Assembly (NCBI GenBank): GCA_016179745.1
Contig: JACPCP010000013.1
Span: 35,344-99,343 of the forward strand
DNA from: Candidatus Omnitrophota bacterium
GTDB taxonomy: Bacteria; Omnitrophota; Omnitrophia; Omnitrophales; JACQLI01
Reading direction: 5' to 3'
DNA: 64,000 nt
The translations under genes and the position numbers were made by a program. The number at the start of each line of letters is the position of its first letter. The first letter of the stretch is position 1. Below the pieces are notes generated by a model. It was not told the DNA's origin, made no database searches, and was given only the letters and a program-made list of their open reading frames with translations. Below, piece by piece: positions 1-64,000 of this stretch.

Positions 1-452
1 GGATACTCGGGAAGGGCCAGGGCCCTCAAAAGACGGTAGAAGAGGGCTGACAGGAATTTTTTGATCCCCGAATCCTTCCGCCTCTTCCTCACTCCCCACA
101 CCACCTCAAAACCCTTTTCCCACTTTTCGATGAACTGGAGGACCACGTCGGGAGGGTCTTGGAGGTCCGCTGCCAGAATTATGGTCGCATCACCCCGGGC
201 ATGGAAAAGTCCGGCGGTGATGGCGCTGTGGCTGCCGAAATTCCGGGAAAGCGACAAGGCCCGAATCCGGCTGTCCGACTTGACCAGTTCGCCCAGTTTT
301 TCCCAGCTCGAATCCCGGCTGCCGTCGTCCACAAAGATCAATTCGTAGTCGTGGGGAATTTTTGTCAGCGTGGCTCGAAGCCCGTCAACAAACGGAAGGA
401 GACTTTCCTCTTCGTTGAAAACCGGAATCACAAAGGAAATCAGTTTCGGCAC
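1..452 (-). CDS. Glycosyltransferase family 2, polyprenyl-phosphate sugar synthase-like (ArnC/GtrB/DPM1-like); 3' end cut by the window edge; missing from the supplied ORF track
   Basis: Manual minus-strand translation from GTG 452..450 (upstream stop TAA at 456..454) gives VPKLISFVIPVFNEEESLLPFVDGL..YELIFVDDGSRDSSWEKL..LSRNFGSHSAITAGL..ILAADLQDPPD..VWGVRKRRKD. These are classic GT2 N-terminal motifs. The frame is open to position 1. Confidence 0.8.
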   Translation of the reverse strand, partial: MPKLISFVIPVFNEEESLLPFVDGLRATLTKIPHDYELIFVDDGSRDSSWEKLGELVKSDSRIRALSLSRNFGSHSAITAGLFHARGDATIILAADLQDPPDVVLQFIEKWEKGFEVVWGVRKRRKDSGIKKFLSALFYRLLRALALPEY

Positions 453-453
453 C

Positions 454-1722
454 TTAGGTCCCGCAGTTAAAATATTTGTCATAGGCCGTTCCCGGAAGAA
501 GGTTCATCCGGCTCAACACCCCAATCAGCCCTTTGAACCGCCTGAGAAGCGAATAGCGGTTCGGATAATCCCGAAAGGTTTTGGTCGGGCGTTTCATCCA
601 CTCCTCAAGTTCTTCCCTCGTGACCCCCAGCCGCTTGATGCACAAATCGATCACGGAGGGGTCTTCAATCACGTAGGTTTCCTTCATCCTTGCGAGCGCC
701 TCGTCCCGTGACATCTGGCCCGAGCGGACCAGCGCAGAATAATTGAAAATTCTCCGGTCGATCTTGAATTTGACCCGGTAAACATAATGCATCAAACTCT
801 GATACAAGTCGTCATAATAATGGGCGCCGGGGTAAACCCAGCCCAGCTCTCTCTTCAAGATCTCTTCCGCCTCCCGCCGGACATAAGGAACCAGATATAA
901 AACCGGAATCGTTTTGATCCGTTTCCAAAGCGTGTAATAGGCCAGGTGATGAAGGTCCAGATTGAATCCGGGATCCTTCGGGGACCAGCGCCTCAGTTTC
1001 ACGGTCCCAAATTGCTCCTGAATCTTTTTCAGGTAGAAGCCGTCCAGATAATTCCAGGAAAGCGGCGCAATGCCCTCGGTCCGAAACGACTGGCCGATCA
1101 GGATATTTCTGATTCCTTCCCGCACAGCAGTCCCATATAAAGCCGTGGCAATGCCAATATCGGTTGAAATGTTAATGCCGGGGACGGAGGCCTTTAGGAA
1201 GGAAATCTTCAAATCCTTGGCCTCCCGCCAATCCGAGGTGACCGTCCTCATCTCCACTCCCAGCCGCTCAACCGCCTGGGTCATATTCTCACCGGCGACG
1301 GGGTTGCCGAACCCGTTATTAAAGTGCACAGCAAGCGGCCGAAGCCCCCACACCCGTTTGGCGAGGTATAACGTGTAAGTGCTGTCCCGGCCTCCGCTGA
1401 CTCCAATCAGGCAGTCATATTTTTTTTTCCGGCCATCCCGCTTGATTTTCGAAAGGTGACTCTCAAGCTTTTTGGCACCGGAGGCATTTAAGGGAAAAGT
1501 CTTCTCGAGTTTGTCGTGAACCTCGCAAAAATTACAAATCCCCTCGGAGTCAAACGCCACGCCCGGCACCGCAGCGTCCATAATGCAGCGAGTGCAGACC
1601 TGAACAGACGGAGGACTAGCGGTCGGCGAGGAGCTCACGGACTCTTTCTGAATAATCGGCCCACTGAACTTTGTTTGCATAGTCTTTATAGCGTTGAAAG
1701 TGATAGGCATTGCTGTAAGCAT
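454..1722 (-). CDS. N-acetyl sugar amidotransferase (WbpG/WbuX family; Zn-ribbon + PP-loop ATP pyrophosphatase), paralog 1
   Basis: 4-Cys ribbon CTRCIMDAAVPGVAFDSEGICNFCEVHD, then PP-loop IGVSGGRDSTYTLY. About two-thirds identical by eye to ORF 41796..43004. Start uncertain: in-frame ATGs at 1722, 1710 and 1680 and GTG at 1638 all overlap the upstream gene end at 1616. Confidence 0.85.
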   Translation of the reverse strand: MLTAMPITFNAIKTMQTKFSGPIIQKESVSSSPTASPPSVQVCTRCIMDAAVPGVAFDSEGICNFCEVHDKLEKTFPLNASGAKKLESHLSKIKRDGRKKKYDCLIGVSGGRDSTYTLYLAKRVWGLRPLAVHFNNGFGNPVAGENMTQAVERLGVEMRTVTSDWREAKDLKISFLKASVPGINISTDIGIATALYGTAVREGIRNILIGQSFRTEGIAPLSWNYLDGFYLKKIQEQFGTVKLRRWSPKDPGFNLDLHHLAYYTLWKRIKTIPVLYLVPYVRREAEEILKRELGWVYPGAHYYDDLYQSLMHYVYRVKFKIDRRIFNYSALVRSGQMSRDEALARMKETYVIEDPSVIDLCIKRLGVTREELEEWMKRPTKTFRDYPNRYSLLRRFKGLIGVLSRMNLLPGTAYDKYFNCGT

Positions 1723-2896
1723 TCAAAATCAAAACATAAAGGAGCGTCACCGAGCCCAGAACCAGCCCGCTCTTGGAGGATTCCAAACGGCAGATTTCGA
1801 AAAACCGGGCTCCGCAAAAACCGGCCAGGATACTAAAACCAACGCCCGGAAAATACAAATACCGGCTGACATGCTCAAACAGGCGGGCGTCCAACATAAA
1901 GGGCAAAACGGTGATCCCCATCCACGCCAGCGAAAATCCATAGACCCTTTTCGGGATTCCCTCCCGCCAGAGTTTGAATCTCCCCTTTCGACTCAGAAAA
2001 ATGAGCAGGGGAATCAACAAAAGGGCGGCGGGCAAAAGCCGAAGCAAAGTTTCCGGCAGAAAGGCCGGAGACAGAAATCCCTTTTCCGGCAGAAACAACG
2101 GGCGGATCAGCATCTCAATCAGGCTGACGATTTTCAAAAGAACGAGGCCGGCCGTGGGGACGACGAGCGAGCTCGAGCGAAGGATGGCGCTTACCGAACC
2201 GTGAAAGAGGAAGAAGCACCACAGGAAATCCCAGAGAAAGAAAATTGCAACCGGTAGGAGCCAGGCCCATCGTCTTTTTGTCTGCCTGGGTTTGATCCAG
2301 ATACCCAAAAAGAGGGCCACGAAAGGCCAAGTCACAGCGCTCTCATTCGCCAAAAGGGCCCCGCCTCCCAGAAGGGCCGCCCCAAGAACTAATCGAACCC
2401 TCCCCTGCCGAAGGAAATCAACCCAGGCCAGCACCGCCGTCAGAACCATCATCAAAGCAATGGGCCTGCCCGCCTGAATCCAGACAAAAACCTGGTAATA
2501 AGCGCTCGAAAAAAGAAACAGCAAGCCGCTTAAAATTCCTGCCCCGGCACTGGCGAATAACTTCCGGCAAAGGCCTGCCACCAAAAGCGCATTCACGAAA
2601 TGAACCAGGAAATGAACGATGTAATAGCCTGTGATGTTCGACCCGAACCATGATTTTTCGATGAACAGGAGATAAAACCAAAAGGGATGGAACCGTCCGT
2701 CTTCGTCCCTCGCCCACGCCGCACCCGGATGCGAGGCAAGGTCTCTGATCTGTAAAAAACTGTAGTAATCATCATTGAAAAAGGGAGCCCGGCTCGCCGG
2801 CGGTGTCAGAATCAGGAGAAATACAAAAAAGGCGCTCAGTAAAATGAAAAATGTCAAAGCGCCGGAACGGGACTTCTCGGTCCATGAAAGCCGCAT
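1616..2896 (-). CDS. Polytopic membrane protein, GT-C-like candidate glycosyltransferase
   Basis: ORF track gives 1616..2992. I prefer ATG 2896, which has AGGAG at 2910..2906 just after the upstream stop 2913..2911. Many hydrophobic segments. The first loop FFNDDYYSFLQIRD resembles the acidic loop of GT-C enzymes. Confidence 0.55.
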   Translation of the reverse strand: MRLSWTEKSRSGALTFFILLSAFFVFLLILTPPASRAPFFNDDYYSFLQIRDLASHPGAAWARDEDGRFHPFWFYLLFIEKSWFGSNITGYYIVHFLVHFVNALLVAGLCRKLFASAGAGILSGLLFLFSSAYYQVFVWIQAGRPIALMMVLTAVLAWVDFLRQGRVRLVLGAALLGGGALLANESAVTWPFVALFLGIWIKPRQTKRRWAWLLPVAIFFLWDFLWCFFLFHGSVSAILRSSSLVVPTAGLVLLKIVSLIEMLIRPLFLPEKGFLSPAFLPETLLRLLPAALLLIPLLIFLSRKGRFKLWREGIPKRVYGFSLAWMGITVLPFMLDARLFEHVSRYLYFPGVGFSILAGFCGARFFEICRLESSKSGLVLGSVTLLYVLILNAYSNAYHFQRYKDYANKVQWADYSERVRELLADR

Positions 2897-2910: not shown

Positions 2911-4929
2911 TTAGACGGGGTATAATTTTGGCATCTGATTGATGATCCGAATGGCCTCGGCCAAATCGATCCCGTTCGTCTCCCCATACCATCGGATCGA
3001 GTCCGGACGGGGCCGGTTTTCCTCCCCGGCTTCCCTCAGGGCCTTTTCCCGGGAAATCAATCCCTGCCGGATTTGATTGCTCCGGAAGGTGTCGTTTTCC
3101 GTAAAACCGGCGACCGTGTAGTAAATGTAATTATAAAAAGCGGCCGTGCCGTCGCCGATCCGCCATGTCGTTGGGGTATCTGCTCGGGTTTCCCAATCAT
3201 ACCGGTCCCGCAGAGTCTCGAGGATCCGGCCTTCCTCCCATTCAATGTATTCGTAGAAATTATGATAGTCGTGCCCGATCAGATAATACGAGGCAAAGCC
3301 GGATAAGGTGTCCCCCACGGAACGATTCAAATAGGCTGGATTTAACAAATACTCCTTTCCATAGTAGACGGCGAGCTCGAGCCGGTCACGAAGCGAGAGG
3401 TCGTAATGCCGTTCCCGTTTTCGCCGCTCTTGAATGCCGCTGAAGGCGACTTTAAAATCTGTCCGTTCCAGAGCATTCATCCCAAAAAAAAGCAGGGGGG
3501 TATCAAGCTGCTTGCGTAACATTCGGCCGTAGAAGAAAAACTGCTTGTCCCCGGCCATAAAAAGGGGAACGGTCCCCAGCCGGGGCCGCTTGAGCCAGGC
3601 ATTCACATTCTGCCGGATAAACTCCCGCTTCTTTTGAATATCCGCCGAAATCAGGATGTGTTCCACTCCCAGTTTGCCGCACAGGCGGGAAATGTTCCGG
3701 CGGGCCAAGGGCGTCACCATCCCCCAGTCATAGGTAAACGCCACGGGATTCATTCCGAGTTCTGCCTTGAGGGTGTGAAGCATGAAGGAACTGTCCCGTC
3801 CCCCGCTCGCCGCCACAATGCAGTCGGGTTCGCCGTTGGTTTTCCGGTGTGGGGCCGCCAACTCTTCAAGGGCCGAAACGCCCCTGTATTTCACAGGAGA
3901 GAAAGTCCGGCAGACATTACAGATCCCTTCGTCATCAAACAAAATAAAAGGGAGGGTCTCGGAAAGAATGCAACGGCGGCATCGTTTGAGGCGGTCGATG
4001 GCCGGACGGTTATCCTGCAAAAGAGATTCCCACCCTGATGGCCGAAGGAGGCTTCCATCCTTCCCCTCTCCCCCTCTGGGGGTAAACGGCCTACTAGAAA
4101 TGTCTGAGATTCTTCGGGCCTTGCCATTGGGTTTTAATTCCTGAACTCCGGTTTCTTGAGTCTCAAGACTAAGAAACTGGACACTCAGGTCTGAGGTCTG
4201 AATCAAACAAGCGCTTCCGGCTTTTAAGTGCGTCACTTCAGAGGAAGCAAGGCCGGGGAATTTCGCCATGAGCGTTTTCAGCATAGAACGTTCCGAGGCA
4301 AATACCACTGCCCTGGGAGCAGGACAAAAACCCAGGTAGAGCGACCCATTATTGGAAGCGAGTAACAGATAATCCAGTTTGTCAAACAATGCTGCGATCG
4401 ATGCCATGCCTTCTATCCGGCGATACGTGCTTCGAACCGATTCCACGAGCGAGGCTCCCTGACGGTAGTGGTGCCCCATCAGGGCGGGAATGATCTCGGT
4501 ATCCACTTCCAGTTCACGCCGAAGCTCGGGAAACTCCAGCCACAGTTCGGCGGGGTTGACAATAATGCCGTTATGGACCGTCACGATCCCTTCCCTGCAC
4601 ACGGGCTGGTTATTGCCGTGCACCCGATAGGAACCGTCGGTCTCCATGCGGGCGTGACCGATCAAGGCCGCCGGTTGACGGATTGTTTGGCGGGAGTTTT
4701 TGCTGAAAGCGAAGTCGAAAAACTGCCGGTAATCCCAGCTCCTCATGATCTGACTCGGGGACACTGCCCGCTTCATCACCCGGATCTGATCCCCTGTCAT
4801 CAAGGCAAGGCCCGACGCCTCTTTCCCTCTTGATTCCGAGAGTTTGAACAACTCCCCCACGACCGATCGGAAGGAGGCCGTATCAAAATGAGAGGTTTCG
4901 TTTACAGCGAGACCAAAGATTCCGCACAT
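2911..4929 (-). CDS. Fusion protein: class II (Ntn) glutamine amidotransferase domain + WbpG/WbuX-type Zn-ribbon/PP-loop sugar amidotransferase
   Basis: N-terminus MCGIFGLAV (Cys2 nucleophile), GHARMETDG and VHNGIIVNPAELW are class II GATase motifs. The C-terminal half has CRRCILSETLPFILFDDEGICNVCRTF followed by the PP-loop VAASGGRDSSFMLH. Confidence 0.8.
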   Translation of the reverse strand: MCGIFGLAVNETSHFDTASFRSVVGELFKLSESRGKEASGLALMTGDQIRVMKRAVSPSQIMRSWDYRQFFDFAFSKNSRQTIRQPAALIGHARMETDGSYRVHGNNQPVCREGIVTVHNGIIVNPAELWLEFPELRRELEVDTEIIPALMGHHYRQGASLVESVRSTYRRIEGMASIAALFDKLDYLLLASNNGSLYLGFCPAPRAVVFASERSMLKTLMAKFPGLASSEVTHLKAGSACLIQTSDLSVQFLSLETQETGVQELKPNGKARRISDISSRPFTPRGGEGKDGSLLRPSGWESLLQDNRPAIDRLKRCRRCILSETLPFILFDDEGICNVCRTFSPVKYRGVSALEELAAPHRKTNGEPDCIVAASGGRDSSFMLHTLKAELGMNPVAFTYDWGMVTPLARRNISRLCGKLGVEHILISADIQKKREFIRQNVNAWLKRPRLGTVPLFMAGDKQFFFYGRMLRKQLDTPLLFFGMNALERTDFKVAFSGIQERRKRERHYDLSLRDRLELAVYYGKEYLLNPAYLNRSVGDTLSGFASYYLIGHDYHNFYEYIEWEEGRILETLRDRYDWETRADTPTTWRIGDGTAAFYNYIYYTVAGFTENDTFRSNQIRQGLISREKALREAGEENRPRPDSIRWYGETNGIDLAEAIRIINQMPKLYPV

Positions 4930-5839: not shown

Positions 5840-6700
5840 TTATCTCCTGTTGAGTTCCCTTCGGACCGAAGAGATTTGTTCGCAGACCACGCCCAGGAAG
5901 AAGATGAGGAGGCCGGTGATAAAAAGCAAAACCATGGAGGCCGTCACATGAACCCGGACCCAGAGGCAATAGAGGGCAAAATAGATCACGCTCGCCGCCA
6001 TCGAGAAAAGGGCCGGGGGCAGAAAAAAACGCAAGGGTTCAAAGAGGACTGTCAGGTTCACAATCAACATGAGGACATTGAGGCTGTCCCGAAAGATCCG
6101 AACTGAACTCCTTCGTCCGCTCCGGGGGTTGACCTCAATCGGAACGGCACGCACCCGGTAGCCCATTTTATACAGGGCCACCGTGCTCGTGGTGGAGAGA
6201 GAAAACCCGTCCGGAAAGAGATGAAGACAGCTACGGAAAGCCTCTGTCCGAAATGCCCTGAGACCGGAATTAAAATCGGGGACTTTCTCCCGAACCAGCC
6301 AATTGACAAAGGCGCCCAAAATTTTCCTGCCGAGTCTCCGCCAGCCGTCTTCGAAAGGGTCACGGTTTCGAGCCCCAATCACAAGATCCGAGGATTCCAT
6401 CACCTCCGTCAGACAGAGAAGATCTTTCAGTCGGTGTTGGCCGTCGGCGTCGAAAAATACGACATATTCGGTAGAAACTGACCGGACTCCAGTTTTTAAA
6501 GCCGCCCCGTAGCCCCGATTCCTCGGATGGGAAAGGAGCGTCGCCTTCCGGCACCGAACCCTCTCAGCCGTTCGGTCGGTCGAGCCGTCATCCACCACAA
6601 TGATTTCCCGGCAGCCGGGCGGTTTCCCCAGTTCGTCCAGAACTCCGCCGATCACGTTCTCCTCGTTATAAACAGGAATCACAATGGAATAATCAGCCAC
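5840..6700 (-). CDS. GT2 polyprenyl-phosphate glycosyltransferase (GtrB/ArnC/DPM1-like) with C-terminal TM hairpin
   Basis: YSIVIPVYNEENVI, IIVVDDGSTDRT, FFDADGQH. Two C-terminal hydrophobic helices (LMLIVNLTVLF.., MVLLFITGLLIFFLGVV). Confidence 0.85.
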   Translation of the reverse strand: MADYSIVIPVYNEENVIGGVLDELGKPPGCREIIVVDDGSTDRTAERVRCRKATLLSHPRNRGYGAALKTGVRSVSTEYVVFFDADGQHRLKDLLCLTEVMESSDLVIGARNRDPFEDGWRRLGRKILGAFVNWLVREKVPDFNSGLRAFRTEAFRSCLHLFPDGFSLSTTSTVALYKMGYRVRAVPIEVNPRSGRRSSVRIFRDSLNVLMLIVNLTVLFEPLRFFLPPALFSMAASVIYFALYCLWVRVHVTASMVLLFITGLLIFFLGVVCEQISSVRRELNRR

Positions 6701-6734: not shown

Positions 6735-8348
6735 TTATTTTACGAGCCTGACGGCGAGGGTGAACGGATCCTCTTCTACGACTTCGTATTTCAAGTTCCC
6801 CAGGTATTCCTTCCAATCAAACTTTCTCGAAGTAAAACAGGGGATCTCCTTGTCCAAAATCAAATAGCCTTCCCGGGAGGTGCCCTGAATGTCCGCCAGG
6901 ACCATCTCCCCGGACACCCGGTTCGTAATCCGGCAGGGCCGTGCCCAGACATAACTCAAAAAGGTCGGATTATTGCTGGCTACGATATCATGATTTTTGA
7001 TCTCGGTTCCGGCAAGTTTAAAGACCCACGGGGAATTCTCAAAGGCTGAAAACGAGGCCCCCTCGACCGGGGAGGGACGGGCCAGAACCGTCTCCCGGAT
7101 CGACTTCAGATTATTAAGCGAATGAAAAAAAAGACTCAAAACAAGAAATCCCAGCAAGCCTACGACGGGTGCAGATCTCCACCGTTTGAAGCCCGCCAAA
7201 TGATTCTGAGCCCCAGTCAAACGATCAATCACGATCAGAACGGACAGAAAAACAATCGGGCAGAGGATCGTAAAGTAGCGGGGGGTCTCGCCGAATCCGT
7301 TTTTCAATCTGAAAAAATTCAGGGCAAGGAAGTGAAGCGCCACCGTCAGAAGAGAAAGCCGGAGAAAATCAAGTTGCGTCTGATGGGCCCAGGGCCTTTG
7401 CCTCATTCGCCAAAGTGCCACGGCCGAAAGTGCCCCGATCGACAGAAATAAAAAGGCGGGAATAAACGCCAAGTCTTGAAGGGTCCATCGATACGTTGAG
7501 AAACCTACGATGAATTCAACCGCATTCCGGATAAAATCGGCCTCCACCTTCAGAAAATCTTCAAAAAAAGGGCGGGAGGGAAAAACCTCCAGGAAGGTAA
7601 GGTGACCGCCGAGCCATTGATTCCTCGCCAACCACCCGCCCATCCCCAAAACAACCGGTAGAAGAAAGAGGGAGATTTCAAGGCTGATTTTTCGGTCTTT
7701 ACCCCTCCGGCGGGCCCAAAGAAAGAAAGCGGCTGACGAGCCTGCGGTAAACAAACCGGAATAGCGGGTCAGGCAAAGAAACAGGACGGCCACGCCCGTG
7801 ACGAAGAACCAGAATCTTCGTTCTCCCCGCTGATCGCACTGGACGGCCTTCAAACAACCCACCATTGAAAATCCGAGGAAGGCCATAAACAGGGGTTCGC
7901 TGAGCGCCGTATTGAAATAGCGCCAGCTCGCCGGAGAAACAAGGACCAGGACGCTGGCCATGATTTGAAAAAGTTTCTCTCTGAAAATCATCACAATCAG
8001 CCCATAAAAGGAAAGATAGTAACCCAGCAGGGCAAGAAAATTAACAAGGCGCAGGGAGTAAATTTCATTCCATCCGGTCAGGTTCATGACCCAGGCAATG
8101 GCAAGACTGAGGAACGGTTGATAGTCGATTTGAGGAATGACCTCTTCGGAGATCAAGCTGTAGGCCGAAAATCCCAGCCCTTGATGGATGAGCCTGGCGC
8201 CCTCGAGATAACGAGCGCCATCCGAAGTGATTTCGGTCGGGAAACAAAGTAGAAAGAACCCCAAGACAGCCATCACAAAAAGGCCGGCTGTAAAATTCAC
8301 TGACGGACTGTGAACTCGCAGCCGTTTAGGGAGAAGATCCGAGATCAT
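6735..8348 (-). CDS. Polytopic membrane protein, GT-C-like (ArnT/PMT-type) candidate glycosyltransferase
   Basis: 537 aa with more than 10 hydrophobic segments. First loop EITSDGARYLEGARLIHQGLGF resembles the D-x-x-Y/acidic loop of the GT39/GT83 families. C-terminal ~110 aa soluble domain. Confidence 0.6.
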   Translation of the reverse strand: MISDLLPKRLRVHSPSVNFTAGLFVMAVLGFFLLCFPTEITSDGARYLEGARLIHQGLGFSAYSLISEEVIPQIDYQPFLSLAIAWVMNLTGWNEIYSLRLVNFLALLGYYLSFYGLIVMIFREKLFQIMASVLVLVSPASWRYFNTALSEPLFMAFLGFSMVGCLKAVQCDQRGERRFWFFVTGVAVLFLCLTRYSGLFTAGSSAAFFLWARRRGKDRKISLEISLFLLPVVLGMGGWLARNQWLGGHLTFLEVFPSRPFFEDFLKVEADFIRNAVEFIVGFSTYRWTLQDLAFIPAFLFLSIGALSAVALWRMRQRPWAHQTQLDFLRLSLLTVALHFLALNFFRLKNGFGETPRYFTILCPIVFLSVLIVIDRLTGAQNHLAGFKRWRSAPVVGLLGFLVLSLFFHSLNNLKSIRETVLARPSPVEGASFSAFENSPWVFKLAGTEIKNHDIVASNNPTFLSYVWARPCRITNRVSGEMVLADIQGTSREGYLILDKEIPCFTSRKFDWKEYLGNLKYEVVEEDPFTLAVRLVK

Positions 8349-37816: not shown

Positions 37817-37826
37817 GGCAGCTCTC

Positions 37827-53511: not shown

Positions 53512-53574
53512 GTCTGATTTTTCTCAACGGAGGTAAGGGTTGAAGCGGAAGTTTCTGTGCTGGGAAAGGAACTG

Positions 53575-54033: not shown

Positions 54034-54039
54034 TATCGC

Positions 54040-55145: not shown

Positions 55146-56795
55146 TTATAGCCTATAAATTCGGATCAAGGGACCCAGTCTCGTCCTCTTCCAAAGAGAT
55201 CGGGACGCAAAATCAACATTCTCCGAATCAAAGGGAATGCCCTCGCTTCGATAGGGAGAAAAAACAGCCAGGAGTTCGGCGGAATGGCTCAACTCCTCTA
55301 GAAATTTTTCATAGCGATCCCGGGCCTCTTTTCGTTCGGGACGCAACTTATGCCTGGGACCTTCCAGAACGGTCCCGAGATGCCATTCATCCAACGCCAG
55401 ATATCTAAATCCCAGCCTCCGATATTCTTCAAGAGTTTTTAAGGAGGACACATTCCGAAGTGTGGTTCTGAAAACAGTGGAATCCAGCCGTTCTGAATAA
55501 GGGAATTTGGGAGTGCTGCGCAGATAAAACCAGAAACTGTGCAGCATTTTTTCGTCCTTCGGAAGATTCTCTGACATCCAGCGGTAGGCCAGAATCCTTG
55601 TCTCGGGAACCATTTTCAGAGAATGGAAACGCACGAGACTCGTCAGGCTGGAAAAAACAAGAATCAGACTGAGTAGAGCCAAGACCAGACTTGTCTGCCG
55701 AATTCCGGCAGGTCTGAGGGAAGCCCATCGCCAGACCGCTCCGACGACAAGCGCTGCGGCGCCCAGGCAAAGGAAAGGAATCATCGGAATAATATATCTT
55801 GCAGCTCGAATTTCCAGGAAGCCTGCGATTAGAAAAAAACACAACGGGAATGCAACAAATAAGAGGTTTCTGGGATTAACTCGGACGGCAAGATAAAGAA
55901 TGCCGATCCAGCCGGCAAGCTCCAACGGAAACCCCAGACCATACCTGAGCGGGTTCGCAAGATAGTAAAACCAGTTCCATTCTCCCTCGTATCCCAGATG
56001 CCCCGTTCCTCCAACCTTGTAGAACCCAATAAACGTAAGCAGGTCCTTCTTAAACCCCGGAAAATCAATAATCCAGAAGGGTGTCCCGATCGTAAACCCG
56101 AGTCCGAAAAAAATAAAAAACAAAAGCGCTTTTCTCCCCCCTCGTTCCCGAAAAAGGTTTGAGCCACGATCCCACGCCCCGAGAACCAGAGCGAGGGGGC
56201 CCAGCATTAGCGCTGTGAGGCCGCTATATTTTGTCGATGCGCTAAGCCCTACGGACAGCCCCATCAGCATAAAATAACGCAGCCCCCCGGTCTGGTAGGC
56301 CAGGACCGCAAAGAGAAAAGACAGGGTAATCAAAAAAGTAAGGGTGGCGTCCACAATCGCAACTTGTGAGTATTGGGCGTGAAGAAAGGCGAACGTTAAA
56401 AAAAAGGCGCTGATCCATCCTGCCTTTTTGTTAAAAAGCTTCAGCCCGATGACATAGACAAGGGGAATGGTCAGGGTGCCGAAAATTGCACTGACGCCCC
56501 TTGCGATCACATAAAAGACCGTGGGGTCCCGCTGATAAAAATCCCATGCCTCACCCAGCGTTTTCAAAAAACCGGACAATCGGGCCGTCAAAATGAACAG
56601 GGCATCGCCCAAAAAGCAAAGATAAAAATAGAGAGTCGGGTGAACAAAGTTATGGGGATTCAGGTCCCCGCCCCCCAGGTTTAAGGCCTGATAGACATAC
56701 CTCCCTTCATCAACATAATTAAGATCCGGCAGCCCGTATCCAATCTTCCAAATCCGAATCACGAAACCAACCAGTGTCAATAAAACGATCGGCAC
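55146..56795 (-). CDS. GT-C glycosyltransferase, family 39/ArnT-like
   Basis: GTG start. First loop GLPDLNYVDEGRYVYQALNLGGG..HPTLYFYL. About 12 TM segments and a C-terminal soluble domain. Confidence 0.7.
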   Translation of the reverse strand: MPIVLLTLVGFVIRIWKIGYGLPDLNYVDEGRYVYQALNLGGGDLNPHNFVHPTLYFYLCFLGDALFILTARLSGFLKTLGEAWDFYQRDPTVFYVIARGVSAIFGTLTIPLVYVIGLKLFNKKAGWISAFFLTFAFLHAQYSQVAIVDATLTFLITLSFLFAVLAYQTGGLRYFMLMGLSVGLSASTKYSGLTALMLGPLALVLGAWDRGSNLFRERGGRKALLFFIFFGLGFTIGTPFWIIDFPGFKKDLLTFIGFYKVGGTGHLGYEGEWNWFYYLANPLRYGLGFPLELAGWIGILYLAVRVNPRNLLFVAFPLCFFLIAGFLEIRAARYIIPMIPFLCLGAAALVVGAVWRWASLRPAGIRQTSLVLALLSLILVFSSLTSLVRFHSLKMVPETRILAYRWMSENLPKDEKMLHSFWFYLRSTPKFPYSERLDSTVFRTTLRNVSSLKTLEEYRRLGFRYLALDEWHLGTVLEGPRHKLRPERKEARDRYEKFLEELSHSAELLAVFSPYRSEGIPFDSENVDFASRSLWKRTRLGPLIRIYRL

Positions 56796-57670: not shown

Positions 57671-59263
57671 TTAATCCCTTACCTTAAAAAGGGTCCCATC
57701 TGAAAAATTGCTTACGACCTTCAAAGGAACTTTTTGGGCCAACTCCTCTTTTGAGGGGTGATACCAACGCCAATCAATATGATCCAAATAGACGAGGACC
57801 CCGTCTTCTTTTAGGAGATTTTCCCTCATTTTGATTATCTCGGAGGGATACGTGGCAAGGTATTGCTTTGAGGAATCTTTCGCATATGCTTTGAGTTTGT
57901 CCCGCTGGGTCGGAATGGGCGACGAGGGACGCCCTGTCAAGAGATAGAGGGCATCCATACCGTTTGTATAAATAAGGGTTCCAGCGGGCAGGGCTCGGAC
58001 ACTTTGGACGACCTCAGAATTCTTCCACAAAGGACCGGCGTAACCCAACCCTTCAGTCCGGGCTTCGTGACTCCAGTGAAGGGCCCTCAAAAAGTAGGAC
58101 GCCGCAAAAAAGCAGGACAACACCACCAACCCCCGGCGGACCCAATTCGAAGACACTGCTCTCTGCCACAGGCGATATCCCGTCAGAGTCATAAACAGAA
58201 TCAGGGCCACATAGACCGGAAAAAGCGCACGATCATCGATGCGTTGTCCGCCGAGAAAGGTCGTCGTCACCAGGTAAACTCCGATATGACAGATCGTGAC
58301 AAGAAACAGAACGGCCGGCAGGTTTTTAGGATAAAATCGCCGTGGCGGGCGGCTCCGGCCTTTTGGGCTTTTATCGGGGCCTCTTCTGTAAACGGAAAAA
58401 GAGACTACCACCAACAACATTACCGCCATCAGCAAAAAGAGCGCTCGAATAACCTTGGGAACACCGTAAGGAAGTAACCACACCGATGGATAGGCCAGGA
58501 GTTCTCTTAAGTTCATCCCAAGATACGGATAAAAACCCGGCATCAAGCCGGTCCCCGTGGTGCTCCCCAAAACCATTTGATTCCGAAAGACCCAAGCCGC
58601 CATCGGAAGACAGGCCAGGCATCCCGCCAGGAACGCATGAGCCATTCTGCGAAGAAAAGTGCCCCGGTGGAACCATAGAAGGGACAATACGACGGTCATC
58701 ACGATAGAAATGCCTGAATACTTCGTCAGAAAAGCAAGGGCAGTGAATCCGATTGCCGTCATCAAAAAGAGTTTTTTGGAACAATCCTCGAGATAGACGG
58801 CCAACCAAAAGAGCCCAAGAAACCCAAAAAAAAGGAACGTGGGTTCCGAGATTGCCATCGCATGAAGTTTCAGGGTCACAAAAGAGGTCAGCAACAAAAA
58901 ACTGCTAAAGAGAGCCGGCCAGAGTGATTTTGTATATCGAAACACAACAAAACCAGCCAGGAAAATATTCGCTCCAAAGAGCAGCGTATTCAACAGCCTT
59001 GCTCCGGTTAAAAGGTCCATCCGAAAAAGACCTGTCATCGCCATCAAGATCGAAAAAAGAGGGCCATAGCGGGTCAAAGGCGGAGCATAGTCCCCTCTTG
59101 GAATCTCCCTCATCCCCTGACCCTCCAGGAGACTCTGGGCGGCACTGAGATAGCTTGCCGAATCGGGAAAGAGCCCGATTCCCCAAGGCGTAGAAAACCA
59201 CAGGAAAAGGACTCCAGCGAAAGCCATGCATCCAACCAGCAAAAGAGTGTGCCGGTGATTCAT
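57671..59263 (-). CDS. Polytopic membrane protein, GT-C-like candidate glycosyltransferase
   Basis: 530 aa. First loop GLFPDSASYLSAAQSLLEGQGM (D-x-x-x-Y..G-x-G pattern). About 11 TM segments and a C-terminal soluble domain. Confidence 0.55.
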   Translation of the reverse strand: MNHRHTLLLVGCMAFAGVLFLWFSTPWGIGLFPDSASYLSAAQSLLEGQGMREIPRGDYAPPLTRYGPLFSILMAMTGLFRMDLLTGARLLNTLLFGANIFLAGFVVFRYTKSLWPALFSSFLLLTSFVTLKLHAMAISEPTFLFFGFLGLFWLAVYLEDCSKKLFLMTAIGFTALAFLTKYSGISIVMTVVLSLLWFHRGTFLRRMAHAFLAGCLACLPMAAWVFRNQMVLGSTTGTGLMPGFYPYLGMNLRELLAYPSVWLLPYGVPKVIRALFLLMAVMLLVVVSFSVYRRGPDKSPKGRSRPPRRFYPKNLPAVLFLVTICHIGVYLVTTTFLGGQRIDDRALFPVYVALILFMTLTGYRLWQRAVSSNWVRRGLVVLSCFFAASYFLRALHWSHEARTEGLGYAGPLWKNSEVVQSVRALPAGTLIYTNGMDALYLLTGRPSSPIPTQRDKLKAYAKDSSKQYLATYPSEIIKMRENLLKEDGVLVYLDHIDWRWYHPSKEELAQKVPLKVVSNFSDGTLFKVRD

Positions 59264-60406: not shown

Positions 60407-61114
60407 TTACTTTCTGAGGCCCAGAGCCAGGAGGGGGACCGGTTTAAAATGGTTCCACCAGCCCGACCAGGGTTTCATTTTGGTGTAACCATTTTTCGAA
60501 GGCGGATAAATCTTTGTGACGGGGACTTCCGCCACCCGGTAACCGAACCGGATGGCCTGGGCAAAGAGGTAGGTCTCCACGGAATAACCATCCAGCCAGT
60601 CTTGATGGATATCCACTCTGGAATCTTCAAGCAGACGCCGGTGAAACGCCCGAAAGCCATTGGTGCCATCTGAGATGTTTTTCATCAGGAAAATGGAAAA
60701 AAGAAGACTGTAAGCCCGGGTGCCCCAAATACGATGGGCCGGCATATTCTGCCACCGGCCCCCGGGAAGATACCTGGACCCCTGGACAAAATCGGCGCCT
60801 CCTTCAAGGATGGGCCGAAGAAGCCTCGGGACTTCGCCTGGATTGTCCTTGCCGTTCACAGCAAATATTACGAAAACGTCGCAGCCTTTCTTGAAGCCGT
60901 AATCAATCCCGGCCCGAATGGCGCCTCCGCAGCCGGCCCTTTTGTCCAATCGAAGGACCGTGGCTCCGGCCCGGGCTGCTTTTTCTCCGGTTCCGTCCGT
61001 CGAGGCATCATCCACAATCAAAATTTCATCGACTGCCCCGGCTGGAAATTTCCCCACAACTTCCGCCGCCCGATGGCCCTCGTTATACATCGGACCGATC
61101 GCAATCGTTTTCAT
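60407..61114 (-). CDS. GT2 glycosyltransferase (DPM1-like, soluble)
   Basis: Start ATG 61114..61112 overlaps the upstream TGA 61113..61111. IAIGPMYNEGHRA, ILIVDDASTDGT. Confidence 0.8.
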   Translation of the reverse strand: MKTIAIGPMYNEGHRAAEVVGKFPAGAVDEILIVDDASTDGTGEKAARAGATVLRLDKRAGCGGAIRAGIDYGFKKGCDVFVIFAVNGKDNPGEVPRLLRPILEGGADFVQGSRYLPGGRWQNMPAHRIWGTRAYSLLFSIFLMKNISDGTNGFRAFHRRLLEDSRVDIHQDWLDGYSVETYLFAQAIRFGYRVAEVPVTKIYPPSKNGYTKMKPWSGWWNHFKPVPLLALGLRK

Positions 61115-62157
61115 TGCCGCCCCCTGGACGGCAAGGGCGTTTCTTCCTCTTCCACCAAAACCGGCTCCCCCTCGCTCTGGATGGATTTCTGCATGGCGCA
61201 AAGTGTCCGCACCACCCGATGCCCGTTTCTGGCGTCTGCCAGCGGCCTTTTCCCCGTCCGGATCGAATCGATAAACTCGTTGCAGACATTCCGCAAAGGT
61301 TCCTCGGCCGTGACCTTGGGGCTGATAATGTCCCCGTCCCGCAGCAGCAATTGAAACTCCCCAAAATTTTCGTAGGGCTTGTCGATACTGACACCCTTTT
61401 CAAAAATCCGGATACGTTCCAGGGTGTTCAGGTCATCGAAAAGCACCCGGGCCTTGCTGCCGACCACTGCCACCTGACGGAGCTTATTGGAATCGACCCA
61501 GCTCAAGTGGATATTTCCGATGATTCCATCCGCATAAAAGAGATTGATGAAGGCGACGTCGGGAATCCCTTCTTTTAAACACGCCGTCCCAATCGCCGAA
61601 ACCTTGCGGGGCTCCTGATCCAATAAATAGGAAAAAATGGAAACGTCATGGGGGGCCAGGTCCCAAAGGGCGCTCACATCGTCACGAATGAGCCCGAGAT
61701 GGGTCCGGGTCGCATGGAGGTAATAAATCTTTCCGAGAACCCCCTTTTCGATGATTTCCTTCATTTTCCGGACCGCCGGATTGTAAAGAAAGGTGTGGCC
61801 GACCATCAGGATGCGCCTGGAGGTATCCGCCAATTCGACCAGCGCACGAGACTGCGTCTCCTCCAAAGCCAGCGGTTTTTCCACGAGAACATGTTTGCGT
61901 GCCTGGAGGGAAGACCGGATAAAGGCATTGTGAGTCGATGCGGGGGTGGCAATCACAATTCCATCGATCTTTGGATCCTCAAGGACTTTTGAAAAATCAC
62001 CGGGGGTCTGAATGGAAGGATACTGCTTTCGAACCTTTGCCAACGGCTCCGGTTTCACATCCGAGACAGTGACAACCTCCACCCCCTCCATCAAACGGAA
62101 GATCCGGAGATAATTGGTCCCCCAATGACCGCAGCCCACCAAACCCAGGCGGATCAT
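61111..62157 (-). CDS. Gfo/Idh/MocA-family oxidoreductase (WbpB/WlbA-like), paralog 2
   Basis: MIRLGLVGCGHWGTNYL, VLVEKPLA, ILMVGHTFLYNPAV. ATG 62157 lies 1 nt after the upstream stop 62161..62159. Confidence 0.85.
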   Translation of the reverse strand: MIRLGLVGCGHWGTNYLRIFRLMEGVEVVTVSDVKPEPLAKVRKQYPSIQTPGDFSKVLEDPKIDGIVIATPASTHNAFIRSSLQARKHVLVEKPLALEETQSRALVELADTSRRILMVGHTFLYNPAVRKMKEIIEKGVLGKIYYLHATRTHLGLIRDDVSALWDLAPHDVSIFSYLLDQEPRKVSAIGTACLKEGIPDVAFINLFYADGIIGNIHLSWVDSNKLRQVAVVGSKARVLFDDLNTLERIRIFEKGVSIDKPYENFGEFQLLLRDGDIISPKVTAEEPLRNVCNEFIDSIRTGKRPLADARNGHRVVRTLCAMQKSIQSEGEPVLVEEEETPLPSRGRQ

Positions 62158-62158
62158 C

Positions 62159-62761: not shown

Positions 62762-62781
62762 GGGGTTCTTTCGTGAGTGCG

Positions 62782-63972
62782 TTATTTTACAACCAATCTC
62801 CCCGCTCGGCCTCTAAATTGATTCCAGGCCTCCAGCATGCCGTAAGCCGCAAAAATCATCAAAAAGGGCATCACGGGATAACGGTAACGAATGCCGGGAA
62901 TGGTCACCGAATGGATGAATGTCACGTAGGCCACGAGGAGATAAATAGGAAGAAATTCCCTCCAGCGGCCCCTCGTTAACAGCAGACCAATAATACTGCA
63001 AGGTATTACAATTAAATAGGATACGGTCATGATCCATTTGGGAAGAACCTGGGCCTTCGAATAGAAAGGAAACCAGAGCCTGAGCGCCTTGATCCCCATA
63101 TTTTTGAAAAAAACTACGGGATGCCTTCGAATGTAATCGATCGCCTTACCCATCAGATAACGGTCTGCTTCCAAACTGAGGAGAGGCGGCAGGGCCGGAT
63201 CATCCTTGGGATACTGGGTGTCGTCTTCATTGATCCAGTCTCCGCCGTGGATTCTCTGTGTCACCTGAGGGTTGTTGCCGAGATAAAGGACATGCCCGGC
63301 ATTGATCGTGAGGAAAATCCCGTCCCGATACACCTGTTTGTTCCGGACCAACCAGGGCGCAAGCGTTGATGTAAAAGCGGCCAAAAATATCAGACTTTTC
63401 AAAATAGCACGACGCCAACCTTTTTTTTCCATAAAAAAATAGATGACCATCAAAGGAAAATAGAGACTCAGGGTTTCCTTGGTTAACACCGCCAGGCCGG
63501 CAAACAAGCCGGCAGCAAGAGAACCCAGCAATCTTTTATCAGTTTGTGATTTGAACAAAAAATAAAAACTCGTCAGAATAAAAAAAATAAAAAGTGTCTC
63601 TGGCAAAATATAAACGGTCTGCTTGACCAAAAGGTAGTCAAAGCTAAAAAGAAAAGCGGCGAGCAGGCCGACAGACGTCCTAAACAGATGCTTCGCAATC
63701 AGAAACAAAAGGACACAACTGAAAGCTCCCAGAAGGGCCTGGGCGAGTTCAAGACCTGACGGATAAAACCCCGCCTTTAGCCATGCGGCGATCAAGAGCG
63801 GGTAGAGCGGCCCCCGCCGTGAAGTGGGAGCCCCATACAGCTCAAACCCCTTCCCCTCGACCAAACTCTCCGCAATCTGATAAAGTTGGTCAGAATCGCC
63901 GGACAGCCTTCCCTCTTGTCCCGCCCCCGCCCATACTGCAATCATCACGAGCCGGACCAAAAGGGCGAGCAT
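62782..63972 (-). CDS. GT-C-like (GT39/ArnT-type) polytopic membrane protein; may be 5'-incomplete
   Basis: First loop LSGDSDQLYQIAESLVEGKGFE. About 11 TM segments. The frame stays open upstream of ATG 63972 to the window end (..ASGAIGAIF-M), so the true start may lie outside the window. Confidence 0.6.
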   Translation of the reverse strand: MLALLVRLVMIAVWAGAGQEGRLSGDSDQLYQIAESLVEGKGFELYGAPTSRRGPLYPLLIAAWLKAGFYPSGLELAQALLGAFSCVLLFLIAKHLFRTSVGLLAAFLFSFDYLLVKQTVYILPETLFIFFILTSFYFLFKSQTDKRLLGSLAAGLFAGLAVLTKETLSLYFPLMVIYFFMEKKGWRRAILKSLIFLAAFTSTLAPWLVRNKQVYRDGIFLTINAGHVLYLGNNPQVTQRIHGGDWINEDDTQYPKDDPALPPLLSLEADRYLMGKAIDYIRRHPVVFFKNMGIKALRLWFPFYSKAQVLPKWIMTVSYLIVIPCSIIGLLLTRGRWREFLPIYLLVAYVTFIHSVTIPGIRYRYPVMPFLMIFAAYGMLEAWNQFRGRAGRLVVK

Positions 63973-64000
63973 GAAAATCGCTCCGATCGCCCCTGAAGCG

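Follow-up and report, generated by a model that had tools for sequence, protein, structure and literature searches.

Eight GT-C-type membrane glycosyltransferases and five polyprenyl-phosphate-sugar synthases in a probable cell-envelope glycan supercluster of an Omnitrophota bacterium

Introduction

Eight large polytopic membrane proteins are encoded among GT2 genes in the window (the whole 64-kb stretch of DNA that was analysed, from a Candidatus Omnitrophota MAG), which raises the question of whether these proteins are GT-C-type glycosyltransferases and how much of a glycan they build outside the cytoplasm. Full Pfam mapping of the 52 ORFs (Table 1) indicates that the window probably belongs to a single, very large supercluster for cell-envelope glycan biosynthesis, in which a conventional route is combined with four to five transmembrane glycosylation modules. 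The periplasmic glycosylation system is real and multi-component, ordinary in principle and exceptionally multiplied.

TABLE 1. Features of the window discussed in the text (positions within the window; TM, transmembrane segment)
Positions	Strand	Feature	Database matches and other features
2..452	-	GT2, ArnC/PgfS (GtrB-like) synthase type; N-terminal 150 aa, gene leaves window	Pfam Glycos_transf_2 99.5 bits; NCBIfam PgfS 124.9, ArnC 113.5 bits over 140 aa
454..1722	-	WbuX-type N-acetyl sugar amidotransferase (makes acetamidino sugars), between GT2 and GT-C	NCBIfam TIGR03573 215.4 bits (cut-off 203.2)
1616..2896	-	GT-C-type (PMT_2-like) membrane glycosyltransferase, 426 aa	11 hydrophobic segments (relaxed threshold); NDDYY after TM1
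2911..4929	-	Glutamine amidotransferase fused to WbuX-like domain	Pfam GATase_7; NCBIfam WbuX 135 bits at residues 315-634
5840..6700	-	GT2, DPM1/AglJ/PpgS synthase type; three C-terminal hydrophobic segments	NCBIfam AglJ 119.7 (full length), PpgS 92.3 bits
6735..8348	-	GT-C-type membrane glycosyltransferase, 537 aa	Weak NCBIfam match to WsfD; NCBI label 'glycosyltransferase family 39 protein'
8326..10125	-	DUF6798-family protein with predicted GT-C fold, 599 aa	Pfam: C-terminal DUF6798 domain only
10133..11197	-	WecA/MraY-family polyprenyl-phosphate HexNAc-1-phosphate transferase (initiating enzyme)	Pfam Glycos_transf_4 111 bits; NCBIfam WecA 121.7 bits
20967..22655	-	MurJ-like MOP-superfamily flippase	Pfam MurJ 165.6 bits; TIGR01695 171 bits (below cut-off 235)
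22558..23787	-	Wzy_C-family O-antigen polymerase/ligase-like membrane protein	Pfam Wzy_C 33.9 bits (cut-off 31.7)
29621..31240	+	GT-C-type (PMT_2-like) membrane glycosyltransferase, 539 aa	Pfam PMT_2 25.9 bits, E 1.3e-5 (cut-off 26.1)
38611..40056	-	Wzx-type flippase	Pfam Polysacc_synt 93.4 bits; NCBIfam Wzx_EPS 87.9 bits
41796..43004		65% identical paralogue of 454..1722	
43180..44541	-	Methyltransferase-like N-terminal domain fused to AglJ/DPM1-like GT2 (residues 217-447)	Pfam Glycos_transf_2 82.7 bits; NCBIfam AglJ 94.9 bits
47079..49373	-	GT-C (PMT_2) glycosyltransferase, 764 aa; soluble C-terminal domain of about 220 aa	Pfam PMT_2 33.3 bits (above cut-off); 14 hydrophobic segments (relaxed threshold)
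49393..50340		Sixth GT2, ordinary type	
50370..51317	-	ArnC/PgfS/GtrB-type synthase; two C-terminal hydrophobic segments	NCBIfam PgfS 178.9, ArnC 131.2 bits, both full length; TM at residues 240 and 261
51314..55119	-	Nucleotide-sugar tailoring block	Pfam, NCBIfam: PseC/ArnB-like aminotransferase, LegB-like SDR, NeuD/PglB-type N-acetyltransferase, UDP-GlcNAc 3-dehydrogenase-like GFO oxidoreductase
55146..56795	-	GT-C (PMT/PMT_2) glycosyltransferase, 549 aa	Pfam PMT 47.9, PMT_2 38.5 bits; VDEGRY after TM1
57671..59263	-	GT-C-type glycosyltransferase, 530 aa	Pfam PMT 20.3 bits, E 4.6e-4 (cut-off 22.7)
60407..61201	-	PpgS/AglJ/DPM1-type GT2 without TM	NCBIfam AglJ 81.6, PpgS 75.1, Dol-P hexose transferase 56.6 bits
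61111..62761	-	Second tailoring pair: UDP-GlcNAc 3-dehydrogenase-like GFO oxidoreductase and NeuD/PglB-type N-acetyltransferase	Pfam, NCBIfam; GFO 41% identical to its paralogue 54040
62782..63972	-	GT-C (PMT_2/PMT) glycosyltransferase, 396 aa	Pfam PMT_2 57.6, PMT 42.8 bits; weak NCBIfam matches to ArnT and LA_3751 families

Identity of the GT-C Candidates

A preliminary description had listed eight ORFs (8326 as a possible member) with at least ten hydrophobic segments and an acidic first loop, and all eight are present and intact where it had placed them. Kyte-Doolittle analysis (19-residue window) yields 5–10 hydrophobic segments per candidate when the threshold is strict (1.6) and 8–14 when it is relaxed (1.1–1.3). 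Six or seven of the ORFs reach the minimum of ten, with 62782 at 8–9 segments and 29621 at 9–10. The acidic loop is present throughout: acidic residues and then Tyr occur soon after helix 1 in each ORF (after helix 3 in 8326), the motifs of the eight being NDDYY, SDGARY, ENELVY, HDSGMN, KDDDGLY, VDEGRY, PDSASY, and GDSDQLY.

In the HMM check, 47079, 55146, and 62782 pass the Pfam PMT/PMT_2 cut-off, and 29621 (E 1e-5) and 57671 (E 5e-4) lie just under it. GT-C identity is supported for 1616 via an ortholog, for 6735 via profile–profile comparison, and for 8326 via a predicted structure. The 75%-identical ortholog of 1616 (P0001) passes PMT_2 (29.8 bits; cut-off 26.1), and 1616 itself has no Pfam match. 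In hhalign, the 6735 family alignment (A2) matches 57671 (97.2% probability, E 3.4e-11, 404 columns) and 62782 (E 4e-4), and 6735 is, by sequence comparison, a paralog of 57671; Asp43 and Tyr47 are invariant across the 6735 family. The AF2 model of 6735 is poor (pLDDT 47), and its best three Foldseek matches, to ArnT and Pmt4, have E values of only about 0.1. In BLAST, 62782 is further linked to 47079 (50 bits, 362 aa) and 57671 (44.7 bits).

The AF2 model of 8326 (pLDDT 76.5, pTM 0.74) resembles GT-C enzymes: its best 22 Foldseek matches in PDB are all of this class, with AftA closest (E 1.2e-6, TM 0.47), followed by STT3, PglB, DPY19, ArnT, ALG9/12, EmbB, and PimE. Almost without exception, members of the DUF6798 family have Asn116, Glu117, and Asp136; judged from this model, the family would be an unrecognised GT-C family and the most novel element of the locus. 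In the family at large, an insensitive detection method found a synthase-type GT2 within 6 kb in only 3 of 36 metagenomic loci.

It is very improbable, and largely refuted, that the candidates are transporters, acyltransferases, or polymerases instead of glycosyltransferases. This reading could draw on the lack of an own GT-C Pfam match for 1616, 6735, and 8326, and on the PDB, in which phmmer and profile searches with six of the eight candidates matched no solved GT-C, so that Pfam profiles and a single predicted structure are the basis of the fold assignment. However, none of the eight matches a transporter, acyltransferase, or polymerase family (including Wzy), and the indirect links of 1616, 6735, and 8326 all lead to GT-C. 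The flippases (20967, 38611), the Wzy_C (22558) and WecA-like (10133) proteins, and a sulfatase-type protein (32210) are separate ORFs outside the preliminary list. In addition, ORFs of the same size class in comparator loci (see below) are mostly Polysacc_synt, Wzy_C, and Acyl_transf_3, which indicates that the method detects such families when present.

Synthase Pairing, Density, and Conserved Cassettes

Four or five ArnC/GtrB/DPM1-type GT2s had been proposed, and five were found, with NCBIfam matches of the ArnC/PgfS or AglJ/PpgS/DPM1 type. PgfS and ArnC are the best matches of 2..452 and 50370, and AglJ, PpgS, or dolichyl-phosphate hexose transferase those of 5840, 60407, and the GT2 part of 43180; the N-terminal part of 43180 resembles the methyltransferase 45455. 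The position orthologous to 2..452 in a close relative (locus L085) is occupied by a 327-aa GT2. For seven of the eight GT-Cs, a synthase-type GT2 is encoded on the same strand no more than 4 kb away; 29621 has none within 10 kb.

The comparator set consisted of the glycan loci of about 70 genomes (1,344 kb), in which 4 of 80 large polytopic ORFs match PMT_2 at E <= 1e-3, or 0.19 per 64 kb. The window has four under the same filter, five without the TM filter, and eight when indirect evidence is included, and the GT-C density is thus far higher than in the comparator loci.

Two cassettes are conserved. A GT-C/GT2/x/GATase–WbuX cassette (orthologs of 6735, 5840, and 2911) recurs in a distant locus, L088, in a housekeeping context, with a 64%-identical ortholog of 5840 adjoining the GT-C ortholog. 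A WbuX/GT-C/WbuX/ArnC-like GT2 cassette is kept in L085, which has a sulfotransferase and extra GT2s beyond the shared block. Related loci L091 and L092 also join DUF6798, PMT_2, and GT2 genes.

Another reading is that the window is a hypervariable store of laterally gained, seroconversion-type modules, of which a subset is used per strain or condition, such that the gene count overstates the number of steps. Polysaccharide cassettes are reported to be hypervariable in Omnitrophota genomes (bioRxiv 10.64898/2026.06.07.730766), content differs in close relatives, as in L085, and the paralogs are old or foreign (GT-Cs at most 28% identical; the GFO pair 41%). An exact-peptide scan of GTDB representative genomes and a metagenome collection found no close relatives of 55146 or 6735. 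Against this, G+C is even across the window (0.50–0.56), all ORFs are intact reading frames (the gene at 2..452 continuing past the edge), and the Pfam map and a sequence scan of the 64 kb revealed no integrase, transposase, or tRNA genes, and the store is an unlikely explanation.

Conventional Route and Proposed Mechanism

The window encodes a complete conventional undecaprenyl-diphosphate route, consisting of the WecA-like initiator, GTs, Wzx, the MurJ-like flippase, and the Wzy_C polymerase/ligase. At least six cytoplasmic (GT-A/GT-B) transferases are encoded, i.e., four GT4s, one ordinary GT2, and a GT2–GT9 fusion. This route is probably supplemented by four to five transmembrane glycosylation modules, each of several components. 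Local tailoring enzymes (3-dehydrogenase/aminotransferase/N-acetyltransferase sets, SDR dehydratases/epimerases, three WbuX-type amidotransferases, and several methyltransferases) would produce an unusual nucleotide amino sugar, which an ArnC/GtrB- or DPM1-type GT2 (GT-A fold) would transfer to polyprenyl phosphate on the cytoplasmic face. The donor sugars can only be inferred, because the matches of the synthases and GT-Cs score far under the equivalog cut-offs of NCBIfam, none of which is reached (ArnC 131 vs 529, ArnT 30 vs 567, PgfS 179 vs 500 bits). The 64-kb window has no GtrA/SMR/EamA-type flippase ORF, and flipping of the lipid-linked sugar is therefore probably performed by a MOP-family flippase or by the product of a gene elsewhere. 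At least one of the eight GT-Cs would then pass the sugar to a periplasmic acceptor, using the acidic residue that is conserved in the first external loop. With five synthases for eight GT-Cs, some donors are presumably shared. Donor sharing is known for Lactococcus lactis, Shigella, and mycobacterial decaprenyl-phosphate arabinose.

The modules may serve a single glycan. A tentative alternative is that the same enzymes, as independent clustered modules, act on several targets instead of decorating one glycan stepwise: lipid A or core (ArnT-like), proteins that are giant and secreted or lie at the surface (PMT-like O-glycosylation), and at least one polysaccharide. Enzymes that modify lipid A or proteins belong to the PMT_2/PMT families, 62782 matches ArnT weakly, and the best match of 55146 is PMT. 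The 6735-type cassette stands alone among housekeeping genes in L088, which implies that it can function without the large locus; more than one pathway is suggested by the presence of two flippases and of a Wzy_C protein (a possible ligase), and the several intergenic gaps of 150–320 bp could separate operons. However, the near-uniform gene direction and tight packing favor a co-regulated unit, the Pfam map of the window contains no MIR domains or other protein-acceptor features, and the ArnT and ArnC scores are far under their cut-offs.

The preliminary description had further proposed that much of the glycan is built or decorated outside the cytoplasm in many steps, in a manner closer to mycobacterial-type assembly or protein O-glycosylation. 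The GT-C identity, GT2 adjacency, and density bear out the extracytoplasmic part, but a complete Wzx/Wzy-type route and the cytoplasmic transferases are present as well, and the window encodes no UbiA/DprE or Emb-like components. It is doubtful that some GT-Cs build a whole chain processively or sequentially, like the Emb/Aft arabinan, as opposed to adding single side-branch residues. The similarity of the 8326 model to the arabinofuranosyltransferase AftA and the ratio of eight GT-Cs to five donors, which recalls arabinan synthesis with its many GT-Cs and one donor (PMC11127046), are in its favor, and the soluble domain of 47079 could bind a growing glycan. However, the Pfam map includes no UbiA-type phosphoribosyltransferase, DprE1/E2, or CBM-bearing enzyme of Emb size (about 1,100 aa), and the conventional route suffices for the backbone. 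The locus is a hybrid of a conventional pathway and extracytoplasmic GT-Cs rather than a purely mycobacterial-style system, because the WecA-like initiator, GT4/GT2/GT9 transferases, Wzx, MurJ-like protein, and Wzy_C protein are also encoded.

Comparison with Known Systems

For the protein O-mannosyltransferases (PMT, GT39) and the PMT_2 'phospholipid carrier-dependent glycosyltransferases', the counterparts are 55146 and 62782, which match both Pfam families, and 6735, which NCBI annotates as GT39; 55146 also has the DE motif after TM1. The window proteins differ in being shorter, lacking MIR domains, and residing in a polysaccharide locus.

The Arn pathway (ArnBCADTEF) for L-Ara4N modification of lipid A is paralleled by ArnB-like aminotransferases, ArnC-like GT2s, ArnT-like GT-Cs, an ArnA C-domain-like decarboxylase (28307), a formyltransferase domain (15969), and an ArnD-family deacetylase (12243). 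However, these components lie apart from one another and are joined in fusions with other domains, ArnE/F are absent, and the ArnC and ArnT scores are far under the equivalog cut-offs (see above).

As in mycobacterial arabinogalactan/LAM synthesis (EmbCAB, AftA-D, PimE, DPA donor), many GT-Cs are clustered with donor-synthesis genes, few lipid-linked donors would serve several GT-Cs, and AftA is the structure nearest to the DUF6798 model. Unlike that system, the window has no UbiA-type DPPR synthase, DprE1/E2, Rv3789-type flippase, or Emb-like CBM domains; its donor synthases are GT2s that use nucleotide sugars, and it also has a Wzx/Wzy route.

Named three-component and multi-component transmembrane glycosylation systems include GtrA-GtrB-GtrC (Shigella/Salmonella), CsbB-GtcA-YfhO, CsdAB/CD/EF with CflA (L. 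lactis), GacI-GacK-GacL, and ORF12-15 (C. youngae). Here too, a gene for a GT-A-fold polyprenyl-phosphate-sugar synthase lies beside a gene for a GT-C-fold transferase. The locus differs in its eight GT-Cs and five synthases within 64 kb (one to three pairs per genome in characterised cases), in the amino-sugar tailoring genes of each module, in the absence of a GtrA/SMR gene from the window, and in its host, an uncultured diderm of the phylum Omnitrophota. Multi-component systems with shared flippases and with Wzx-type flippases are described (PMC8035078), as are flipping of undP-ribose by a MATE flippase and loci with multiple GT-Cs (PMC11127046); several GT-A/GT-C pairs per organism are possible, donors and flippases can be shared, and Wzx/MATE-type flippases can replace GtrA (PMC8035078, PMC11127046). 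With eight GT-Cs and five donor synthases, the locus represents a known mechanism in an unusually crowded form.

Gene Content of the Window

The best-supported reading of the window is that of a hybrid locus, in which a conventional Und-PP Wzx/Wzy route is combined with four to five transmembrane glycosylation modules. A six-frame listing yields 52 ORFs, all but one of them complete; almost all lie on the minus strand, with tiny or overlapping junctions, and the G+C content is even across the window (0.50–0.56). All 52 ORFs were scanned against Pfam and most also against NCBIfam, and nearly every gene that could be assigned is glycan-related. No tRNA gene, integrase or transposase is present in the 64-kb window. 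The product of 6735–8348 is 100% identical to MBI2167167.1 ("glycosyltransferase family 39 protein" at NCBI, Candidatus Omnitrophica MAG), and Logan assemblies from several SRA runs also contain identical genes.

By Pfam, the Wzx/Wzy-type set is complete (initiating phosphoglycosyltransferase, Wzx flippase and Wzy polymerase); a Wzz chain-length regulator was not found in the 64-kb window. Cytoplasmic extension is represented by four GT4 enzymes, two of which are fusions, an ordinary GT2 and a GT2–GT9 fusion. The sugar-tailoring genes encode two DegT aminotransferases, four SDR epimerase/dehydratases, two UDP-GlcNAc 3-dehydrogenase-like GFO oxidoreductases, two NeuD/PglB-type acetyltransferases, WbqC, PIG-L, an AsnB-type amidotransferase, at least five methyltransferases and three WbuX-type N-acetyl sugar amidotransferases. 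The preliminary description had proposed many separate extracytoplasmic steps, closer to mycobacterial-type assembly or protein O-glycosylation than to ordinary Wzx/Wzy loci: the modules of GT-C (polytopic extracytoplasmic glycosyltransferase) and donor synthase agree with such steps, but the locus is a hybrid, as the full Wzx/Wzy set is also found.

Features of the window discussed in the text. ORFs are named in the text by their start coordinates; (+) marks the only two plus-strand genes.
Coordinates or start	Assignment	Evidence or remark
2–452 (partial)	Synthase-type GT2	Matches to PgfS/ArnC models
454–1722	WbuX-type amidotransferase	Above NCBIfam WbuX cut-off
1616–2896	GT-C candidate	PMT_2 via ortholog
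2911–4929	WbuX-type domain fused with glutamine amidotransferase domain	
5840–6700	Synthase-type GT2	AglJ, PpgS, dolichyl-phosphate hexose transferase models
6735–8348	GT-C candidate	hhalign
8326–10125	GT-C candidate, DUF6798	Predicted structure
10133	WecA-like initiator	Glycos_transf_4, 111 bits
11197–12312	371 aa	No Pfam/NCBIfam family at thresholds used
12243–13298	ArnD-family deacetylase	
13308–14528	ArnB-like aminotransferase	
15969–18056	Formyltransferase + GT4	Fusion
17999–20974	Methyltransferase + polysaccharide deacetylase + GT4	Fusion, 991 aa
20967–22655	MurJ-like flippase	MOP family
22558	Wzy_C protein	Wzy_C, 33.9 bits
23794–24306	170 aa	No Pfam/NCBIfam family at thresholds used
24234–26168	Asparagine-synthase-type amidotransferase	XrtA/PEP-CTERM system amidotransferase (nearest model), 661.8 vs 816.9 bits (cut-off)
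28307–29302	ArnA C-domain/UDP-xylose-synthase-like SDR	
29621–31240 (+)	GT-C candidate	PMT_2, 25.9 vs 26.1 bits (cut-off), E 1.3e-5
31256–32200	APH-family kinase	
32210–33856 (+)	Sulfatase-superfamily membrane protein	LtaS/EptA-like, five N-terminal TM segments
33853–35343	496 aa	No Pfam/NCBIfam family at thresholds used; very weak methyltransferase signal
36005–37909	GT2 + GT9 heptosyltransferase-like	Fusion
38611–40056	Wzx	Polysacc_synt, 93 bits
40300–41502	Seryl-tRNA-synthetase-like amino acid--[acyl-carrier-protein] ligase homolog	132.7 bits
41796–43004	WbuX-type amidotransferase	Above NCBIfam WbuX cut-off
43180–44541	Methyltransferase-like + DPM1-like synthase-type GT2	Fusion; residues 217–447, same models as 5840–6700
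46239–47078	Nitrilase-superfamily C-N hydrolase	
47079	GT-C candidate	PMT_2, 33.3 bits
49393	Ordinary GT2	
50370–51317	Synthase-type GT2, ArnC-like	End-to-end with PgfS (178.9 bits) and ArnC (131.2 bits)
55146	GT-C candidate	PMT, 47.9 bits; PMT_2, 38.5 bits
57671	GT-C candidate	PMT, 20.3 vs 22.7 bits (cut-off), E 4.6e-4
60407–61201	Synthase-type GT2	Same models as 5840–6700
62782	GT-C candidate	PMT_2, 57.6 bits; PMT, 42.8 bits

GT-C Candidates and Donor Synthases

Evidence of several kinds supports the eight polytopic GT-C-like ORFs that had been picked out from the sequence. Three of them (47079, 55146, 62782) score above the Pfam gathering cut-off for PMT or PMT_2 and two (29621, 57671) lie slightly under it; 1616, 6735 and 8326 have no PMT/PMT_2 match of their own, and 6735 matches no Pfam family at all. 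The sole database homolog of 1616 (P0001, 75% identity) clears PMT_2 at 29.8 bits. The family profile of 6735 (A2) aligns with 57671 (hhalign probability 97.2%, 404 columns) and, collinearly, with 62782 (E 4e-4), and these two ORFs are linked to each other by a BLAST match. The AlphaFold model of 6735 is poor (7-sequence alignment, pLDDT 47), and the ArnT and Pmt4 likeness of this predicted structure (top Foldseek matches, E ~0.1) is suggestive. Single-sequence and profile searches against the PDB (1616, 6735, 8326, 29621, 55146, 62782, A2 and A3) gave noise only, and thus provide no sequence-level link between the candidates and solved GT-C enzymes.

An acidic first loop had also been described, and all eight candidates have an acidic and Tyr motif (D/E-x-Y) shortly after TM1, or after the third helix in 8326, that varies little or not at all in the two aligned families; Asp43 and Tyr47 are invariant in A2. 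The positive-inside rule predicts that this loop lies outside the cytoplasm. At a relaxed threshold the candidates have 8–14 hydrophobic segments, so that the earlier count of 10 or more is correct for six or seven of the eight.

Five GT2 enzymes are of the polyprenyl-phosphate-sugar synthase type, as judged by their best long matches to the PgfS/ArnC or AglJ/PpgS models, and 50370–51317 additionally has two C-terminal hydrophobic segments. Because all five score under the NCBIfam equivalog cut-offs, the synthase type is supported and particular substrates are not.

The density of GT-C genes was compared with that in 71 loci around DegT homologs from diverse genomes, 1,344 kb in total; all matches of the DegT scan are at most 38% identical, and these loci were therefore used as a comparator and not as relatives. 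A filter on length (380 aa or more) and hydrophobic segments (seven or more) left 80 comparator ORFs, which by Pfam are mainly Polysacc_synt (18), Wzy_C (15) and Acyl_transf_3 (5). PMT_2 occurs in 4 of the 80, or 0.19 per 64 kb, and in four window ORFs under the same filter (eight counting all evidence), an approximately 20-fold excess over a comparator whose phyla are not matched to the host, so that part of it may be a lineage trait. The exceptional density first noticed is upheld on this basis. Variable polysaccharide cassettes are mentioned in Omnitrophota papers (bioRxiv 10.64898/2026.06.07.730766); GT-C density is not mentioned in those found by literature search.

The DUF6798 Protein

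The DUF6798 protein 8326–10125, which had been listed only as a possible GT-C, is the most novel element of the locus. Its sole Pfam domain is the 61-residue C-terminal DUF6798, and the membrane domain of DUF6798 proteins carries no annotation. In a Foldseek search against the PDB, the AlphaFold model (nine homologs; pLDDT 76.5, pTM 0.74) has exclusively GT-C enzymes as its top 22 matches, led by AftA (E 1.2e-6, TM 0.47); further matches include yeast and human STT3, PglB, DPY19, ArnT, ALG9, ALG12, EmbB and PimE. The membrane part is thus predicted, from one modeled structure, to adopt a GT-C fold. Comparison by hhalign of the DUF6798 family with each other membrane protein of the window, including the PMT_2-like ones, indicates no relationship, so it is the structure that carries this assignment. 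Asn116, Glu117 and Asp136 are nearly invariant among 61 DUF6798 proteins, and two extra N-terminal helices of 8326 are absent from most members (loci L086 and L089–L172 of other genomes).

Clustering at 50% identity gives the family 4,020 or more clusters (E ≤ 1e-3), and no paper on DUF6798 was found by literature search; the predicted fold would supply this large family with a testable function. Loci of homologs at 45–50% identity likewise combine GT2 and PMT_2 genes, and beyond the close subfamily most members are located away from recognisable glycan loci. Of 36 metagenomic DUF6798 loci, BLAST found a synthase-type GT2 gene within 6 kb in 3 and a home-made HMM in 1; with these insensitive detections, no family-wide linkage to synthases was seen. 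Sulfotransferase genes adjoin DUF6798 or GT-C genes in relatives (L085:4668–5471, L086:11962–12834, L090:5999–6712, L092:4889–5665), which suggests that the relatives' glycans are sulfated; no such gene is present in the window.

Pairing and Conserved Cassettes

For seven of the eight GT-C genes, all but 29621, a synthase-type GT2 gene lies on the same strand within 4 kb, and sugar-tailoring genes are often the sole intervening genes: a GFO 3-dehydrogenase, an acetyltransferase, an SDR and an aminotransferase between 55146 and 50370, and an acetyltransferase and a GFO protein between 62782 and 60407. The proposed pairing is thus borne out in the window, and two of the pairs are preserved elsewhere. 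The order GT-C (6735)/GT2 (5840)/x/GATase-WbuX (2911) recurs at 43–64% identity in a distant metagenomic genome (L088), where its housekeeping surroundings argue for a self-sufficient functional unit, and a close relative (L085) preserves WbuX/GT-C (1616)/WbuX/ArnC-like GT2. L091, one of the loci of DUF6798 homologs at 45–50% identity, has three or four GT-C-type genes within 12.6 kb. Exact-peptide scans with 55146 (genome collection) and 6735 (metagenomes) revealed no close relatives. The GT-C paralogs share no more than 28% identity, and an origin of the modules by recent tandem duplication is therefore rejected.

Sugar Tailoring and Accessory Genes

Two of the three WbuX-type genes directly adjoin GT-C genes, and 454–1722 and 41796–43004 encode 65%-identical paralogs; together the three suggest acetamidino (acetimidoyl) amino sugars. 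The presence of the ligase homolog 40300 and the hydrolase 46239 inside a glycan locus points tentatively to a sugar carrying aminoacyl or amide groups, and 24234–26168 may amidate uronic acids. The unpaired GT-C 29621 could form a periplasmic phospho-substituent module with the sulfatase-superfamily protein 32210 and the kinase 31256 that sits between them. Arn-like parts (12243, 13308, the formyltransferase domain of 15969, 28307 and 50370) are scattered through the window, and none reaches its equivalog cut-off.

Proposed Mechanism

Multi-component transmembrane glycosylation systems composed of a GT-A synthase, a flippase and a GT-C are well described (PMC8035078; PMC11127046), and each module of the window would act in that order. 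With eight GT-C enzymes and five synthases, donors would be shared. The window contains no ORF of 60–250 aa with at least three hydrophobic segments, as expected for a small flippase of the GtrA or SMR/ArnEF type, and no window ORF matches GtrA or EamA in Pfam. Its two MOP-family flippases (20967, 38611) could stand in for GtrA; elsewhere, GacK, a C. youngae MATE protein and Wzx-/MATE-type flippases substitute for it (PMC11127046, PMC8035078). We infer amino sugars of the 3-acetamido and acetamidino kinds as donors; the nature of the acceptors and the choice between one and several glycoconjugates as products are likewise approached by inference.

A more far-reaching joint reading, doubtful as a whole, is that an envelope glycan or glycoconjugates would be built unusually far on the periplasmic face, by eight GT-C enzymes that would receive rare diacetamido/acetamidino amino sugars from five polyprenyl-phosphate carriers, as a mycobacterial-style extracytoplasmic line operating in a diderm nanobacterium without a GtrA-type flippase, and that DUF6798 would be an unrecognised GT-C family meriting its own CAZy family, whose member here might be a ligase or oligosaccharyltransferase beside the WecA-like initiator.

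Significance and Comparison with Known Systems

Extracytoplasmic glycosylation by GT-C enzymes is the means by which bacteria vary their surface antigens, phage receptors and antibiotic-resistance modifications, and in characterised organisms the number of GT-A/GT-C pairs per genome is one to three. Loci with several GT-Cs, described as "more elaborate", have been noted in passing (PMC11127046). The presence here of eight GT-Cs alongside five donor synthases, with separate amino-sugar tailoring genes for each, suggests a surface chemistry of exceptional complexity, and the locus offers a compact candidate set for rare lipid-linked amino-sugar enzymes. Omnitrophota are ultra-small, probably host-attached bacteria.

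Neither ArnC (131.2 bits, cut-off 529) nor ArnT (29.8 bits, cut-off 567) is matched at equivalog level, and the window is therefore not counted as an Arn pathway. A UbiA-type DPPR synthase, a DprE1/E2 epimerase and an Emb-type GT-C with CBM are absent by Pfam among the 52 ORFs, and the window is therefore not assigned to DPA-dependent machinery. What mycobacterial arabinan assembly shares with the window is the logic of many GT-C enzymes, and the Gtr, Arn, Csd and Gac systems follow the same working principle as its modules.
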